Of a DNA stretch of 64,000 nucleotides, positions 26,676-50,898 are shown in pieces. Location of the stretch: NCBI RefSeq assembly GCF_057098645.1, contig NZ_CM169472.1; one strand, written 5' to 3'. How positions within the stretch are numbered: the first letter of the stretch is position 1; each line of letters starts with the position of its first letter. The position numbers and the translations under genes were made by a program. The notes beneath the pieces were generated by a model. That model had not been told where the DNA came from. It was given only the letters and a program-made list of their open reading frames with translations, and ran no database searches.

Positions 26676-27749
26676 GTGGGGCAGCGAATACCTGTAACGC
26701 TTGGTAATATTGCGCCGTTGTCGCTAAGGCCGTTCCAGCCTGGACGAATAGCTCTGGTGTGCGAAGGCGGCGGACAGCGTGGAATTTTCACGGCTGGCGT
26801 GCTGGATGAGTTTATGCGCGCGCAGTTTAATCCTTTCGATCTTTATCTCGGCACATCTGCCGGGGCGCAGAACCTCTCGGCGTTTATCTGCAATCAGCCC
26901 GGTTACGCGCGCAAAGTCATCATGCGCTATACCACAAAACGCGAATTTTTCGATCCATTGCGCTTTGTCCGTGGAGGAAATCTTATCGATCTCGACTGGC
27001 TGGTGGAGGCCACCGCAAGCCAGATGCCGTTGCAAATGGATACCGCCGCGCGGTTGTTTGACAGCGGCAAATCGTTTTATATGTGCGCCTGTCGTCAGGA
27101 TGACTACGCGCCGAATTACTTTTTACCAACCAAACAAAACTGGCTGGATGTGATTCGCGCCTCCAGTGCGATACCTGGCTTTTATCGTAGCGGAGTGTCG
27201 CTGGAAGGCATTAACTACCTGGATGGCGGGATCAGTGATGCGATTCCGGTTAAAGAGGCGGCAAGGCAGGGCGCTAAAACGTTGGTCGTCATCCGCACTG
27301 TGCCGTCACAAATGTACTACACGCCGCAGTGGTTCAAACGCATGGAACGCTGGCTGGGTGACAGTAGCCTGCAGCCGCTGGTCAATCTGGTGCAGCATCA
27401 TGAAACCAGCTATCGTGACATTCAGCAATTTATTGAGAAACCACCGGGCAAGCTGCGGATATTCGAAATTTATCCGCCGAAGCCATTACATAGTATCGCG
27501 CTTGGCAGTCGGATTCCGGCGCTGCGTGAAGACTATAAACTTGGGCGTTTATGCGGTCGTTATTTCCTCGCCACGGTTGGCAAGCTATTAACTGAAAAAG
27601 CGCCGCTTACCCGCCATCTGGTGCCAGTGGTGACGCCGGAATCGATTGTCATTCCGCCTGCGCCAGTCGCCAACGATACGCTGGTTGCCGAAGTGAGCGA
27701 CGCTCCGCAGGCGAACGACCCGACATTTAACAATGAGGATCTGGCTTGA
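26676..27749 (+). CDS. yjjU: Patatin-like phospholipase YjjU
   Basis: GGGQRG and GTSAG (GxSxG) motifs. Start set at GTG 26676 for a 357 aa product. Confidence 0.85.
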   Translation: MGQRIPVTLGNIAPLSLRPFQPGRIALVCEGGGQRGIFTAGVLDEFMRAQFNPFDLYLGTSAGAQNLSAFICNQPGYARKVIMRYTTKREFFDPLRFVRGGNLIDLDWLVEATASQMPLQMDTAARLFDSGKSFYMCACRQDDYAPNYFLPTKQNWLDVIRASSAIPGFYRSGVSLEGINYLDGGISDAIPVKEAARQGAKTLVVIRTVPSQMYYTPQWFKRMERWLGDSSLQPLVNLVQHHETSYRDIQQFIEKPPGKLRIFEIYPPKPLHSIALGSRIPALREDYKLGRLCGRYFLATVGKLLTEKAPLTRHLVPVVTPESIVIPPAPVANDTLVAEVSDAPQANDPTFNNEDLA

Positions 27750-28528
27750 TTTGCCGTTTTATCGATACCCACTGCCATTTTGATTTCCCGCCGTTTAGTG
27801 GCGATGAAGAGGCCAGCCTGCAACGCGCGGCACAAGCGGGCGTAGGCAAGATCATTGTTCCGGCGACAGAGGCGGAAAATTTTGCCCGTGTGTTGGCATT
27901 AGCGGAAAATTATCAACCGCTGTATGCCGCATTGGGCTTGCATCCTGGTATGTTGGAAAAACATAGCGATGTGTCTCTTGAACAGCTACAGCAGGCGCTG
28001 GAAAGGCGTCCGGCGAAGGTGGTTGCGGTGGGGGAGATCGGTCTGGATCTCTTCGGCGACGATCCGCAATTTGAGAGGCAGCAGTGGTTACTCGACGAAC
28101 AACTGAAACTGGCGAAACGCTACGATCTGCCGGTGATCCTGCATTCACGGCGCACGCACGACAAACTGGCGATGCATCTTAAACGCCACGATTTATCGCG
28201 CACTGGCGTGGTTCACGGTTTTTCCGGCAGCCTGCAACAGGCCGAGCGGTTTGTACAGCTGGGCTACAAAATCGGCGTAGGCGGTACTATCACCTATCCA
28301 CGCGCCAGTAAAACCCGCGATGTCATCGCAAAATTACCGCTGGCATCGTTATTGCTGGAAACCGACGCGCCGGATATGCCGCTCAACGGTTTTCAGGGGC
28401 AGCCTAACCGCCCGGAGCATGCTGCCCGTGTGTTTGCCGTGCTTTGCGAGTTACGCCCGGAACCCGCGGATGAGATTGCCGAAGTGTTGCTTAATAACAC
28501 GTATGCGGTGTTTAACGTTCGTGGGTAG
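27746..28528 (+). CDS. yjjV: TatD-family metal-dependent hydrolase YjjV
   Basis: 260 aa with the HCHFD motif. Start overlaps the yjjU stop. Confidence 0.9.
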   Translation: MICRFIDTHCHFDFPPFSGDEEASLQRAAQAGVGKIIVPATEAENFARVLALAENYQPLYAALGLHPGMLEKHSDVSLEQLQQALERRPAKVVAVGEIGLDLFGDDPQFERQQWLLDEQLKLAKRYDLPVILHSRRTHDKLAMHLKRHDLSRTGVVHGFSGSLQQAERFVQLGYKIGVGGTITYPRASKTRDVIAKLPLASLLLETDAPDMPLNGFQGQPNRPEHAARVFAVLCELRPEPADEIAEVLLNNTYAVFNVRG

Positions 28529-28530
28529 TT

Positions 28531-28945
28531 TGCCCTTCGTAGGCAGCATCCGGCAGTCGGCGCATAATGCCTGATGCGACGCTTAACGCGTCTTATCATG
28601 CCTACAGGTTTGTGCCGAACCGTAGGCCGGATAAGGCGTTCACGCCGCATCCGGCAGTTGGCGCACAATGCCTGATGCGACGCTTGTCGCGTCTTATCAT
28701 GCCTACAAGTCTGTGCCGAACCGTAGGCCGGATAAGGCGTTCACGCCGCATCCGGCAGTCGGCGCATAATGCCTGATGCGACGCTTGTCGCGTCTTATCA
28801 TGCCTACAGGTTTGTGCCGAACCGTAGGCCGGATAAGGCGTTCACGCCGCATCCGGCAGTTGGCGCACAATGCCTGATGCGACGCTTGACGCGTCTTATC
28901 AGGCCTACAAGTCTGTGCCGAACCGTAGGCCGTATCCGGCATGTC
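28531..28945. repeat. REP/BIME cluster, about four tandem ~101-bp units
   Basis: Direct repeats of GCCTGATGCGACGCTT...CGTCTTATCATGCCTACA...CCGTAGGCCGGATAAGGCGTTCACGCCGCATCCGGCAG, each containing palindromic REP motifs. Confidence 0.8.
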
Positions 28946-29807
28946 ACAAATAGAGCGCCGGAAATATCAACCGGCTCACCCCGCGCACCTTTAATGCATC
29001 AGCCAACGGCTCAACGTCTTCCGGCGTGGCGCTCGCCCAGCTTTGCGCCTCGCCATACACGCCGTGGGCATGAAACGCGTTCAGGCGAACCGGAACATCG
29101 CCAAGTCCCTTGATAAACGCCGCCAGTTCTTCGATGTGTTGCAAATAATCCACCTGGCCTGGGATCATCAGCAAACGCAGTTCCGCCAGCTTGCCGCGCT
29201 CTGCCAGCAAATAGATGCTGCGCTTAATCTGTTGATTATCGCGTCCGGTTAATTGTTGATGACATTCGCTACCCCATGCTTTGAGATCGAGCATTGCGCC
29301 GTCACACACCGGGAGTAATTTTTCCCAGCCGGTTTCGCTCAACATACCGTTACTGTCCACCAGACAGGTGAGATGGCGCAGTTGCGGATCGTTTTTGATA
29401 GCAGTAAACAGCGCCACTACAAACGGCAGTTGGGTCGTGGCTTCGCCGCCGCTTACCGTTATCCCTTCAATAAACAGCACCGCTTTGCGCACATGGCTAA
29501 GCACCTCATCCACGCTCATGGATTGCGCCATTGGCGTGGCATGTTGCGGACACCTCTTCAGGCTGGTATCACATTGCTCGCAGACCACAGCGTTCCACAC
29601 CACTTTGCCGTCAACAATCTGCAACGCCTGATGCGGACACTGTGGCACGCACTCCCCACAGTCATTGCAACGTCCCATCGTCCACGGATTGTGACAGTTT
29701 TTGCAGCGCAGATTGCAGCCCTGCAAAAACAGAGCCAGACGACTGCCTGGCCCGTCAACGCAGGAGAAGGGGATAATCTTACTGACTAAAGCGCATCTGC
29801 TGTTCAT
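28944..29807 (-). CDS. yjjW: Glycyl-radical enzyme activating protein (radical SAM) YjjW
   Basis: 287 aa with the CxxxCxxC motif [11 protein letters not shown] and extra Cys clusters. Confidence 0.9.
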
Positions 29808-42186: not shown

Positions 42187-42234
42187 CGCATTCAGCGCAT
42201 ATTTAGCAAATTACGTAATGGGTTCCTCGCGCGA

Positions 42235-42447
42235 TTATTTATACAGTTCGGCACTCATGGTGACGGTATTGCCCATGCGAGCGCTGGTAATTTTGTATTC
42301 AGAGGCGTTCATCTCTTTCGCTTTCTGCGCAATAACCGCTTCAGCGGAATCCAGTGTTGTACCGGTTGCTGTCACGCTTTGCGCCGATGCGTTAAACGCC
42401 GCGACAGAGAAAAGAGAAGCCGTAAAAATTGCGATGATCGTTTTCAT
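42235..42447 (-). CDS. DUF1471 (YhcN/BhsA/McbA-family) small periplasmic stress protein
   Basis: 70 aa from MKTIIAIFTASLFSVAAFNASA (signal peptide). Mature part ends TSA..GN....A.LYK, typical of the family. The ORF-track start at 42615 is an extension. Confidence 0.5.
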   Translation of the reverse strand: MKTIIAIFTASLFSVAAFNASAQSVTATGTTLDSAEAVIAQKAKEMNASEYKITSARMGNTVTMSAELYK

Positions 42448-42604
42448 GTTTATATTCCAGAGTGTCTTAATTGTTTGGCGTTTATTAACGCGATGGGGAG
42501 AGAATACGCCTGCTGCCTGATAACATAAATGATACAAATGGCAATAGACTATTCTGTTTTTGTTAATAATCAGACGCCGGACGTTCCGACGCCTGTCGAT
42601 CGCA

Positions 42605-43021
42605 TCAGGCAACAAAGTTGTCCTTTAGCGCCTTGAGACCATCCCGATAGATGCCGGTAAACAGCGCCTCGGCCTCTTCGTTCGTCACATTCACCGGGGT
42701 GAATTCACCGAACCATTCCACACGGGAAACCTGGCTGTCGGCGGTTTCATGAACGGTAATGGTGGAGAGGTAATCCACCACCGGGAACGGAGCCTGAATA
42801 ATGGAATAGGTATAACTGCGTTGACGGTTATCAAACGCTTCCAGACGTTCAACCACAGTGCCGCCGTCAGAGGTTGTCAGCGAACGAACGCGACCGCCTT
42901 CTGTCACTACGCTTTTCGGGATGAACGGCAGCCAGTCTGGCAGCGCATCAAAGCCGCCCATCAATTGCCATACGGCGTCGGCAGAAGCCGGAATTTCGAT
43001 CGATACAGTTGTTTTAGCCAT
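42605..43021 (-). CDS. SRPBCC (Bet v1-like / polyketide-cyclase-like) ligand-binding protein
   Basis: 138 aa. The pattern A.AD.VWQL...FD.LP.WLP looks SRPBCC-like to me. Family assignment is by inspection only. Confidence 0.5.
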   Translation of the reverse strand: MAKTTVSIEIPASADAVWQLMGGFDALPDWLPFIPKSVVTEGGRVRSLTTSDGGTVVERLEAFDNRQRSYTYSIIQAPFPVVDYLSTITVHETADSQVSRVEWFGEFTPVNVTNEEAEALFTGIYRDGLKALKDNFVA

Positions 43022-43046
43022 GATAATTTTCTCTTAATTTATAGGG

Positions 43047-43844
43047 TTACATTGTCAGGGTGTCGACGACGCCGCCATCGACGCGCAGGGCTGCCCCTGT
43101 GGTTGCCGAGGAAAGCGGTGACGCGAGATAAACCGCCAGATTCGCCACTTCTTCCACATCTGCTGCACGCTGGATGATGGAACTCGGACGCGAGGTTTTA
43201 ACAAACTCATCGGCCTGTTCACGCGCACTGCGTCCCGATTGTGCAGCGGCATCCGCCAGCATCTCTTTCAGGCCATCGGTAAAGGTTGGCCCTGGCAGAA
43301 TGGCGTTGACGGTCACACCGGTCCCCGCCAGTCGTTTCGCCAGACCATGAGAAACCGCCAGATTCGCGGCTTTGGTGACGCCGTAGTTGATCATGTCGCC
43401 AGGGATTGCCACGCCGGATTCGGACGAGACAAAGATAATCCGCCCCCAGCCCTGTTCCGTCATGCCTGGCGCATAGTGACGCGCCAGACGAACGCCGGAG
43501 AGGACGTTGACGTTATAGAAGTGCATCCACTCATCATCCGGAACGCTAAAGAAATCTTTATCGTTAAAAATGCCCAGATTATTGACCAGCACATCAGCCG
43601 TTGGGACTGCAGCGAGCAGCGCAGCCACGCCGTCTTCGGTGCTGAGATCCGCCACCACGCCGCGCAGTGACGCTGTGGGAGTTTGTGCCGCAATCGCAGC
43701 CATGGCGTCATCAACGCCGCTCTGTTTACGGCCGACGACAACCACCGTTGCGCCTGCTTTTGCCAGTCCGGCGGCGATACCCTGCCCAATGCCGGAGGTT
43801 GAGCCGCTGACCACCGCGACTTTACCTGTCAGATCCAGTTTCAT
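43047..43844 (-). CDS. Short-chain dehydrogenase/reductase (SDR)
   Basis: 265 aa from MKLDLTGKVAVVSGSTSGIGQGIA (glycine-rich NAD(P)-binding motif), with NNLG. The ORF-track start at 43946 is an extension. Confidence 0.8.
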   Translation of the reverse strand: MKLDLTGKVAVVSGSTSGIGQGIAAGLAKAGATVVVVGRKQSGVDDAMAAIAAQTPTASLRGVVADLSTEDGVAALLAAVPTADVLVNNLGIFNDKDFFSVPDDEWMHFYNVNVLSGVRLARHYAPGMTEQGWGRIIFVSSESGVAIPGDMINYGVTKAANLAVSHGLAKRLAGTGVTVNAILPGPTFTDGLKEMLADAAAQSGRSAREQADEFVKTSRPSSIIQRAADVEEVANLAVYLASPLSSATTGAALRVDGGVVDTLTM

Positions 43845-43863
43845 CGTTTTCTCACCAGGTTGA

Positions 43864-44874
43864 TTAACGGGTCGGCAGCGGAGCGTTTTCCGCAACCAGA
43901 TTTTGACGGCACATTTCTGCCCAGAATTCAGCCGGAACAGGCGCATTCAGTGCAGCCAGATCTTCTGCCATACGGCCAGGACGGCTGGAGCCAGGAATAA
44001 CCGCTGCAACGGCCGGGTTTGCCAGCGCGAACTGCAGCGCAGCCGCTTTAACGTTCACATTGAAACGTGTGGCAATGGCGTTAATTTGCGCCACTTTCTG
44101 CTGGATGGCCGCAGAGGCTTTCTGATATTCAAAGTGCTCGCCGCCTGCCAGTACGCCAGAGCTGTATGGACCGCCCACAACGATATCCACGTTCTGTTCC
44201 AGTGCTTCTGGCATCAGGCGTTGCAGCGCACGTTCGTGATCCAGCAGGGAATAACGCCCCGCCAGCAGGAACGCATCCGGCTTCGGTTCGTCCAGCGCCA
44301 GCGTCAGTTCGCAAGGTTCGACGCGGTTCACACCCAGTCCCCAGGCTTTAATCACACCTTCGTCACGCAAACGCGTCAGCGCACGAAATGCACCGGTACG
44401 GGCAATGTTGAACTGCTCCAGCCAGCTGTCACCGTAGAAGTCCTGCGCCGGGTCGTGGATCCAGACAATGTCCAGACGGTCTGTTTTCAGGCGTTTCAGG
44501 CTGTCTTCAATCGATCGCAGCGTGGCGTCAGCAGAGTAGTCATTCAGAATTTTGTTTTTCAGGCCGTGTTCGAACAGGCCACCTTTTTCACCGAAATCCC
44601 GTTTTGCCGGATCTTCCATTTCGTCCAGCATGATGCGACCGACTTTGCTACTCAGAACGTATTCATCGCGTGGATACTGAGACAGCGCTTCACCCATGCG
44701 GATTTCAGAAAGGCCAGAGCCGTACAGCGGCGCGGTATCAAAGTAACGCACACCCAGGTTCCAGGCTTCGCTCACGGTGGCGTGGGCCTCTTCTTCCGGA
44801 ATGGCACGGAACATGTTGCCAAGTGGTGCGCCGCCTAAGCCAATTTTGCCGGGGAGTAAATTTTTAATGCTCAT
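43864..44874 (-). CDS. Aldo/keto reductase
   Basis: 336 aa with FDTAPLYG and AKR-typical spacing. SD GAGGA. Confidence 0.8.
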   Translation of the reverse strand: MSIKNLLPGKIGLGGAPLGNMFRAIPEEEAHATVSEAWNLGVRYFDTAPLYGSGLSEIRMGEALSQYPRDEYVLSSKVGRIMLDEMEDPAKRDFGEKGGLFEHGLKNKILNDYSADATLRSIEDSLKRLKTDRLDIVWIHDPAQDFYGDSWLEQFNIARTGAFRALTRLRDEGVIKAWGLGVNRVEPCELTLALDEPKPDAFLLAGRYSLLDHERALQRLMPEALEQNVDIVVGGPYSSGVLAGGEHFEYQKASAAIQQKVAQINAIATRFNVNVKAAALQFALANPAVAAVIPGSSRPGRMAEDLAALNAPVPAEFWAEMCRQNLVAENAPLPTR

Positions 44875-44927
44875 AAGATGTCCTCAATTATTCGGTTTGG
44901 GTTAGGGCGTTTTTTTGCTATCGCCCT

Positions 44928-44951
44928 GTGACGTGGATCACAATACCTTGC
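44928..44951. promoter_or_regulatory. Candidate LysR-type operator dyad in the divergent promoter
   Basis: TCACAA-N12-TTGTGA inverted repeat between the divergent AKR and LysR genes. Confidence 0.35.
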
Positions 44952-45007
44952 GAGGTTGTGACTTGATAGGACATAATTCGTCTGACTTAAGTCCTTTGAG
45001 GTCTAAC

Positions 45008-45895
45008 ATGATTGATTTACGCCAACTGAAGTACTTCGTGGTGGTCGCAGAAGAAGAGCACGTGGGACGCGCAGCCGAGCGATTACATATCTCGCAATCG
45101 CCGCTGAGCCGCCAGATTGCACAACTGGAAGAACGACTGGGGCTGACGCTGTTTGAGCGTAATCAGCAGCGCATTCGCCTGACCGCTGATGGACAGACAT
45201 TCCTTGCCGAAACACGTTCGTTGCTGACACACGCCAACCGCCTGGAGTCGTTAGGCAAACGCCTGGGACGGGGGGAAGATGGGGGCTTGTGTATTGGCTA
45301 TATCGAAAACGCCATGCATTCCGGTGTACTTTCTACGGCGTTACGTACGTTACGTGTATCGCGTCCGAATGTGCATATCGCTCTTTACAGCCAACCACCG
45401 GCTACCCAGATTGAAGGCCTGCGCCAGCGCAGTCTCGATTTTTCTCTGGTCGATACGCCGCCCGCCGACAGCGAGCAGGATCTGGAATATATTCAGGTTC
45501 TGGATGATCGAATGTTGTTGGCCTTACCGCAAAATCATCCTCTGGCGCAGGAGGAAAACCTTGTCGCGTCACAACTTGGCGATGAGCAGTGGATTGCGGT
45601 GATTCATAACGACGATGCGCATTCTCGCGATCATTTTGTCGCCGCCTGTGTTAACGCCGGGTTTAATCCTGATATTCGCCTGGAAGCGGGTGAACCCCTC
45701 ACGGCATTAGGTCTGGTCGCTGCGGGATTAGGTCTGGCCTTAATTCAACATAGTCTGCGTCATAATGCGCCGGAAGGGGTGGTATTACGTGAATTGCCGT
45801 GGATGAATTATTCAACGCAATTATGGGCAGCCTGGCATAAAGCCAACCAACGTCCGCTGGTTTCCCATTTCCGCCAGATCCTGCGCGGTGAATAA
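45008..45895 (+). CDS. LysR-family transcriptional regulator
   Basis: 295 aa from MIDLRQLKYFVVVAEEEHVGRAAERLHISQSPLSRQI (LysR HTH). Divergent from the AKR-SDR gene set. Confidence 0.85.
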   Translation: MIDLRQLKYFVVVAEEEHVGRAAERLHISQSPLSRQIAQLEERLGLTLFERNQQRIRLTADGQTFLAETRSLLTHANRLESLGKRLGRGEDGGLCIGYIENAMHSGVLSTALRTLRVSRPNVHIALYSQPPATQIEGLRQRSLDFSLVDTPPADSEQDLEYIQVLDDRMLLALPQNHPLAQEENLVASQLGDEQWIAVIHNDDAHSRDHFVAACVNAGFNPDIRLEAGEPLTALGLVAAGLGLALIQHSLRHNAPEGVVLRELPWMNYSTQLWAAWHKANQRPLVSHFRQILRGE

Positions 45896-46048
45896 AACGT
45901 TAAGCGGGAACCATGAGTTCCCGCTTGATTTGAGATGTCAGTCCGCATCTGAGCTAATACACTTAAAGAGAATTCTGCCTTTTCGGGGACTCATCATTTA
46001 ACTAATGCCGGATGCGATGCTGGCGCGCCGCACCCGGCATTTTACGCA

Positions 46049-50280: not shown

Positions 50281-50282
50281 TT

Positions 50283-50898
<616 letters not shown>

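Follow-up and report, generated by a model that had tools for sequence, protein, structure and literature searches.

A REP352-type BIME-2 array between the convergent genes yjjV and yjjW of an O145-type Escherichia coli

What fills the interval between the convergent genes yjjV and yjjW of Escherichia coli, and what might it do for the genes on either side? In the 64,000-nt stretch of DNA analyzed here (the window), an earlier note had described this interval as a tandem array of palindromic REP motifs, which could act as a transcription terminator, an mRNA stabilizer or a binding site for gyrase or IHF. REPs are imperfect palindromes of 30–40 nt, in which a conserved GTAG precedes the stem on the 5′ side and a mismatch interrupts the stem itself (PMC3333891). 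Among the elements built from them, BIME-1 is one pair of z1 and y whose long linker binds IHF, whereas BIME-2 combines z2 and y in inverse orientation with a short S linker, is arranged in tandem and varies in copy number among strains (Ton-Hoang 2012, PMC3333891).

Our analysis identifies the array as an ordinary BIME-2 element that is already known and catalogued. We consider it highly probable that the best overall explanation of the locus combines BIME-2 identity and the anatomy described below with an inferred bidirectional 3′-UTR element and a probable gyrase site, parts that we grade separately.

Location and flanking genes

The left neighbor of the array, yjjV, encodes a TatD-family metal-dependent hydrolase on the plus strand (27746–28528) and ends with a TAG stop codon at 28526–28528. 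On the right, yjjW encodes a YjjW-family glycyl-radical enzyme activase on the minus strand (28944–29807), with its stop codon at 28944–28946. Both gene names are taken from the annotation of the E. coli O145 str. RM9872 RefSeq record, which is 100% identical. The gap between the two stop codons spans 28529–28943 (415 bp) and is occupied by the BIME-2 array; the coordinates proposed earlier, 28531–28945, were correct to within 2 nt.

A TRF analysis of positions 27500–30000 returned one array only (28546–28932), with a period of 101 bp, 3.8 copies, 94% matches, 0% indels and a score of 690. A seed-and-extend repeat search, separate from TRF, found three 196-nt copies at a spacing of 101 bp and with 94–96% identity. 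TRF, the open reading frames and the RefSeq annotation of the RM9872 record agree in placing the array between convergent yjjV (+) and yjjW (−), as had been proposed. Furthermore, yjjU lies upstream of yjjV, which is the final gene of a plus-strand unit, and yjjI lies upstream of yjjW on the minus strand, so that the array forms the 3′ UTR of yjjV as well as that of yjjW.

Anatomy of the array

Read on the plus strand, each unit consists of a 13-nt linker, a 37-nt inverted Z2 REP, a 16-nt linker and a 35-nt Y REP, and this plan is repeated four times. The REPs follow the order Y′(+) Z2(−) Y(+) Z2(−) Y(+) Z2(−) Y(+) Z2(−) Y′(+), in which Y′ denotes a truncated copy. Seven REPs are therefore intact, three Y and four Z2, and one truncated Y remnant lies at either end. 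Together with the 3.8 copies reported by TRF, this bears out the original description of about four units of ~101 bp made of REP palindromes; all of the units align to the Y/Z2 consensus.

The three Y REPs, all on the plus strand, occupy 28622–28656, 28723–28757 and 28824–28858. The first matches the consensus exactly, with a 5′ GTAG and an AA/GC stem mismatch, and all three 35-nt copies are identical to one another and to the consensus. The four 37-nt Z2 REPs lie on the minus strand at 28569–28605, 28670–28706, 28771–28807 and 28872–28908 and carry 0–2 mismatches. Z2 REP 1 has its GTAG on the minus strand and is hence an iREP when the plus strand is read, and only in Z2 REP 4 is the base of the stem paired throughout (CAGGCC). 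All seven intact REPs have the conserved GTAG/CTAC as well as an AA/GC mismatch (bubble) inside the stem. In 100 shuffles of the window, 0.00 matches were expected for the Y pattern and likewise for the Z2 pattern.

At its left end, the gap opens with 10 nt of unique sequence, TTTGCCCTTC, after the yjjV stop codon. This is followed by a truncated Y remnant (GTAGGC-AGCATCCGGCA; 28539–28556, plus strand), from which the central ~17 nt are absent and which has no stable hairpin (−1.4 kcal/mol). At the right end, a second Y remnant (GTAGGCCG-TATCCGGCA; 28925–28941, plus strand) forms only a weak 4-bp hairpin and stops 2 nt short of the yjjW stop codon. Both terminal REPs are thus truncated remnants and not whole palindromes.

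Two types of linker separate the REPs. In unit 1, the short (S) linker that joins the REPs head to head is of variant “a” (GTCGGCGCATAAT) and lies at 28557–28568, with ends that overlap the adjacent REPs by 1 nt, and the linker recurs ahead of each further Z2 REP at ~28657–28669 (variant b), ~28758–28770 (a) and ~28859–28871 (b). The 16-nt tail-to-tail linker, AGGTTTGTGCCGAACC, lies at 28606–28621 and recurs at 28707–28722, 28808–28823 and 28909–28924, where AGGTTTG and AAGTCTG variants alternate. The linker pair GTCGGCGCATAAT/AGGTTTG is common to units 1 and 3, and the pair GTTGGCGCACAAT/AAGTCTG is common to units 2 and 4. Units 2 and 4 differ from each other at 2 positions, compared with 4–6 differences between adjacent units. 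This A-B-A-B pattern of linkers, with units 2 and 4 closest to each other, suggests that the latest expansion was probably a 202-bp duplication of two units.

Short palindromic repeats of 37 nt at regular spacing bear a superficial resemblance to a CRISPR array. In contrast to CRISPR, however, the 64-nt segments between the Z2 copies are repeats themselves (94–100% identical to one another), alternate repeats are inverted, and the neighbors are yjjU, yjjV, yjjW and yjjI, with no cas genes adjacent. The caution in the earlier note against taking the array for a CRISPR locus was well founded. Similarly, several open reading frames of 47–114 aa cross the array, but 101 is not a multiple of three, so that changes in copy number would shift any reading frame, and RefSeq annotates no gene there in the examined records. 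The chance that the array is a CRISPR locus, a coding region or an intrinsic terminator (discussed below) is negligible in our judgment. Labeling it as BIME-2/REP352 prevents it from being miscalled as a CRISPR array, an sRNA gene cluster or a set of small ORFs, and has little significance beyond annotation.

Classification as BIME-2

The individual repeats have the characteristics of REPs: They are palindromes with GTAG and a stem mismatch, they are extragenic, lying between two stop codons, they are dispersed, and they are a target of IS1397. A 1.1-kb query had matches in 5425 of the 5426 complete genomes of E. coli, with a median of at least 25 sites per genome. At the level of the array, Y and Z2 alternate in inverse orientation, the S linker measures 13 nt and the tail-to-tail linker, which in BIME-2 is of the s, l or r type, 16 nt, the units are in tandem, and the copy number is variable. 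Every feature that defines BIME-2 at the sequence level is thus present, and the array is therefore a BIME-2 array, namely of the REP352 type, an identification that is as good as certain.

The array has inverted REPs, and the Y REP in particular, in common with BIME-1 (RIP/RIB elements). These, however, are single-copy elements with Z1 and a long L linker that carries an IHF site, whereas the array has a 13-nt linker, Z2 as the partner of Y, and tandem units. The IHF core WATCAANNNNTTR is absent from both strands of the array. We therefore exclude a BIME-1 element or an IHF site, and the suggested IHF binding does not apply here, because it belongs to the long linker of BIME-1 and the array is BIME-2.

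Three Y-S-Z2 doublets of the array match the Rfam family naRNA4 (RF02564; gathering score 59.5 bits), which was built on the BIME-2 array REP325. The matches lie on the plus strand at 28625–28703 (76.7 bits), 28726–28804 (77.3 bits) and 28827–28905 (83.1 bits), the last of which also matches on the minus strand (61.0 bits). One could accordingly take the units as genes for naRNA4-like nucleoid-associated RNAs that act with HU to link DNA cruciforms and compact the chromosome. Besides the three units above the curated Rfam threshold, this explanation can draw on the reported HU- and naRNA4-dependent condensation, naRNA4 having been defined on REP325, and on the reported transcription of ~80% of REPs (Qian 2015, PMC4550694). 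It is opposed by the findings that deletion or over-expression of REP325/naRNA4 leaves the nucleoid volume unchanged, and that neither a stable HU–cruciform–naRNA4 complex nor HU-dependent REP–REP contacts could be found (Harris 2026). The condensation model is contested and, for its founding member REP325/naRNA4, largely refuted, and we regard it as very unlikely for the units described here. The Rfam match reflects the common Y-S-Z2 sequence and does not by itself point to a function.

RNA structure and termination signals

Transcribed from either side, the array would be strongly structured. The gap as a whole, folded as RNA and compared with shuffled sequences, has z scores of −9.1 (plus strand) and −11.0 (minus strand). 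The Y hairpins have folding energies of −20.9 kcal/mol (plus) and −21.3 kcal/mol (minus), and the Z2 hairpins range from −13.8 to −21.3 kcal/mol, with Z2 REP 4 at −21.3 (plus) and −20.4 kcal/mol (minus). The terminal remnants fold poorly (−0.6 to −6.8 kcal/mol). In three of the four Z2 copies, an uncompensated change from G to T affects the base of the stem, which gives −14.7 compared with −21.3 kcal/mol, and these mismatches suggest that selection on hairpin strength may be weak.

Within the array, no hairpin is followed by a U-tract or T-run, there is no run of four or more T or A, and a terminator scan found no terminator-like site. An intrinsic (Rho-independent) terminator is thus ruled out, since none of the hairpins precedes a U-tract, and any termination in the array would be Rho-dependent or of the leaky REP kind. 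The idea that the array might act as a terminator accordingly loses its intrinsic form and stands, by analogy with other arrays, as possible leaky or Rho-dependent termination. A sigma-70 promoter-like match at 28540–28568 was attributed to chance (1 match vs 1.3 expected in shuffled sequences).

Copy number among E. coli strains

The occurrence of the locus was analyzed in 5426 complete E. coli genomes with a repeat-free query, in which 300 bp of yjjV were joined to 300 bp of yjjW. The locus was present in 5423 of these genomes, and both halves of the query were joined in 5389. In a first BLAST search, ~1,900 genomes apparently lacked the yjjV end. This looks like an artefact of piece-joining, because with the repeat-free query the two genes are joined in 5389 of the 5423 records; two of the genomes concerned have five units.

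Gap lengths were tallied for 60 rows spread down the ranking, a non-random sample in which laboratory derivatives of K-12 are over-represented. Three of these 60 genomes have a gap of ~30–33 bp with no unit and a lone Y REP, 16 have one unit (112–113 bp), 11 have two (213–230 bp), two have three (314 bp), ten have four (414–416 bp by BLAST span; the window has 415 bp, and K-12 has 419 bp by annotation), and 18 have five (515–516 bp). The comparison with other strains that had been suggested as a check thus revealed 0–5 units among the 60 sampled genomes, in steps of 101 bp: The array expands and contracts in register, by whole units. Annotating it as BIME-2/REP352 explains the assembly and length differences that strains show between yjjV and yjjW.

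Sequences were read for 12 alleles. The zero-unit allele consists of exactly one Y REP that bridges both stop codons and fills the 33 bp between them; the array of the window sits inside what some strains have as this single Y REP. In longer alleles, the same linker variants recur in mosaic combinations, which fits unequal exchange in register. The two-unit class includes the blood isolate EC100, in which the halves of the query are unjoined because yjjW is frameshifted; yjjW is annotated there as a frameshifted pseudogene, and the adjoining two-unit array is intact. In JNE25-001, the orthologous array has a copy of IS1397 (IS3 family) in the loop of its first Z2 REP, flanked by a 3-bp GAC target duplication. 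According to Clement 1999, as cited in PMC3333891, IS1397 inserts specifically into REPs of BIMEs, at the palindrome loop.

The variation in copy number also bears on the question of whether the array has any function for its host. It could be a selfish or neutral repeat, made of REPINs that were seeded by a REP-associated tyrosine transposase and then multiplied by slippage or unequal recombination, with no meaningful host function at yjjV–yjjW and tolerated because the ends of two convergent genes are a safe place. The free variation between 0 and 5 units among the 60 sampled genomes and the mosaic patterns of the linkers, which fit unequal exchange, agree with such an origin, as do the uncompensated mismatches that weaken three of the four Z2 stems. 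TnpA_REP requires GTAG, the stem mismatch and C|T cleavage motifs in vitro (PMC3333891). The array contains these features, including the cleavage motifs TGCC|TGAT and GCC|TAC, and each of its ~85–100-bp Y-Z2 doublets is a REP doublet, as in REPIN/RAYT (TnpA_REP) systems; it differs from them in that no RAYT gene adjoins it. RAREFAN predicted seven of eight REP regions to be RAYT-associated REPINs, a list from which REP352 is absent (bioRxiv 10.1101/2024.07.17.603846). The effects that REPs reportedly have on expression vary widely, which also favors a neutral repeat, but convergent gene pairs with REPs show raised expression genome-wide (Harris et al. 2026). Further points against it are the exact conservation of the three Y REPs, which argues against rapid drift, and a copy number that looks stable within lineages (~416 bp in all K-12 derivatives, 213 bp in O157:H7). 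An array without host function is a reasonable reading that nevertheless appears somewhat unlikely to us. A selfish history would explain the origin of the array as much as its function, and it is compatible with the 3′-UTR role discussed below.

The K-12 orthologue and two forms of the yjjV 3′ end

The array of the window is the E. coli O145-type allele of K-12 REP352a–h. The latter is the EcoCyc name of the K-12 orthologue, which overlaps yjjV by 2 nt (bioRxiv 10.1101/2024.07.17.603846). We took the name from this source because the version of the NC_000913.3 record used here lists no repeat features. Both alleles lie at one locus between the same genes, contain four 101-bp Y/Z2 units and agree exactly at the right junction. 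They differ in length and at the left end: REP352 fills a gap of 419 bp with eight REPs and a full first Y REP, whereas the window has 415 bp and seven intact REPs. The linker of unit 1 is variant “b” in K-12 and variant “a” in the window.

The 3′ end of yjjV takes two forms, which these alleles exemplify. YjjV of the K-12 type ends in ...NVP*, and the TAG stop codon falls within the GTAG of the first full Y REP, in agreement with the reported 2-nt overlap. In the window type, YjjV ends in ...NVRG*, followed by TTTGCCCTTC and the truncated Y REP. A REP-associated rearrangement has thus altered both the last residues of YjjV and the distance between the stop codon and the first stable hairpin, which is about 1 nt to a few nt in the K-12 type versus 40 nt in the window.

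A REP located ≤15 nt from a stop codon regulates translation, as quoted in bioRxiv 10.1101/2024.07.17.603846. By this rule, alleles of the K-12 type would affect YjjV translation, and the window allele would not. A broader proposal is that the lineage-specific array, through its copy number and its form of the yjjV 3′ end, is a heritable non-coding dial on the flanking operons, which strikes us as improbable. If it were such a dial, copy number would set the amount of convergent read-through that reaches yjjW and yjjI, a glycyl-radical enzyme system. The series from zero to five units and the two yjjV stop alleles provide natural alleles for relating REP number and REP–stop distance to convergent expression.

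Proposed role as a bidirectional 3′-UTR element

The transcripts of yjjU–yjjV from the left and of yjjI–yjjW from the right would both run into the array. There, the stacked hairpins would block 3′-to-5′ exonucleases, and the array would cause leaky, partly Rho-dependent termination that limits read-through into the opposing gene. Since both transcripts would enter the array, a bidirectional 3′-UTR element appears the most likely role, judged from work on other BIME-2 arrays, chiefly REP325. By this analogy, we favor, with moderate confidence, an RNA-level effect, a bidirectional hairpin barrier in the 3′ UTRs combined with a leaky terminator, as the main effect on the host.

REP325 is the best-studied model of BIME-2 function and, like the window array, consists of tandem Y-S-Z2 doublets. 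In plasmid constructs, its 12 Y/Z2 REPs stabilized the upstream mRNA >100-fold (Harris et al. 2026 preprint). Read-through was attenuated ~8-fold, and a part of this attenuation was Rho-dependent, though only if the array was complete (Harris et al. 2026). The two arrays differ in that the 12 REPs of REP325 (naRNA1–6) lie between tandem genes of one operon, yjdM–yjdN, whereas the window has seven intact REPs and two remnants; unlike REP325, these lie between convergent genes, so that transcription would reach them from either flank. Across the genome, the presence of REPs between two convergent genes correlates with raised expression of each, and predicted bidirectional terminators contain 78 REPs (Harris et al. 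2026). The same study describes wide, context-dependent variance of REP effects, and terminal REPs did not generally alter mRNA half-life (Harris et al. 2026); in its supplement, yjjW appears on one line only, in what is apparently a differential-expression table. Against a need for a long array stands the sampling of strains: Because ~5% of the 60 genomes have a single REP and 27% have one unit, a long array is unnecessary.

A candidate DNA gyrase site

At the DNA level, the array would also be a preferred site of DNA gyrase. Gyrase cleavage sites are over-represented in BIME-2 elements in vivo, with Y REPs preferred to Z2 REPs, and this enrichment does not depend on transcription; the signal increases when transcription is blocked (Sutormin 2018, PMC6379681). 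The array might thus act mainly as DNA, as a strong, transcription-independent gyrase site with cruciform-prone Y/Z2 pairs that relieves positive supercoils between the convergent units. Its position between convergent operons agrees with such a role. In addition, K-12 REP352 is among eight exonuclease-protected REP regions, for which the authors consider protein binding or a change of topology, and its protected coverage is raised under SDS or copper stress (bioRxiv 10.1101/2024.07.17.603846). Cleavage, however, was found in only a subset of BIME-2 elements (Sutormin 2018, PMC6379681), and strains with a single REP are viable. The available part of the supplementary text of that study names neither yjjV nor yjjW. 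Extrapolating from BIME-2 elements in general, we see a gyrase role that matters, and likewise a mainly DNA-level role, as plausible but less likely than not. Such a gyrase role and the RNA-level role in the 3′ UTRs are compatible with each other.

Other features of the window

Two further REP sites were found in the window. A second BIME-like pair at 50281–50368 consists of a Z2 REP (−) and a Y REP (+), the latter with one mismatch to the Y consensus, and fills the convergent trpR–yjjX gap. A lone degenerate Y-type REP lies at 32423–32456, in the deoC–deoA intergenic region within the deo operon.

The genes on either side of the array each contain an exact copy of a K-12 sigma-54 motif. The sequence CTGGCATCGTTATTGCT, inside yjjV (28340–28356, plus strand), corresponds to an intragenic sigma-54 ChIP-seq motif, and CTGGCTCTGTTTTTGCA, inside yjjW (29722–29738, minus strand), to a motif with a FAT score of 17 (PMC4591121). 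Both point at the REP array, and any transcript that starts from them would run into it. The yjjW motif overlaps a terminator-like hairpin call at 29753–29732.

Directly upstream of prfC, the window contains lambdoid prophage genes (~1–23,500; up to ~5350600 in RM9872), which encode tail assembly proteins, the tail tip protein J, Lom, a tail fibre, a recombinase and a DinI-like protein. In K-12, prfC is preceded by yjjG, and a prophage has therefore integrated next to prfC in the strain of the window. Finally, the nadR–ettA interval (~42,000–45,900; 5369171–5373026 in RM9872) contains five intact genes, which encode a DUF1471 protein, an SRPBCC protein, an SDR oxidoreductase, an aldo/keto reductase and a LysR regulator, as well as one annotated gene fragment. 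As K-12 presumably has no genes between nadR and ettA, this group looks like a small strain-variable island.
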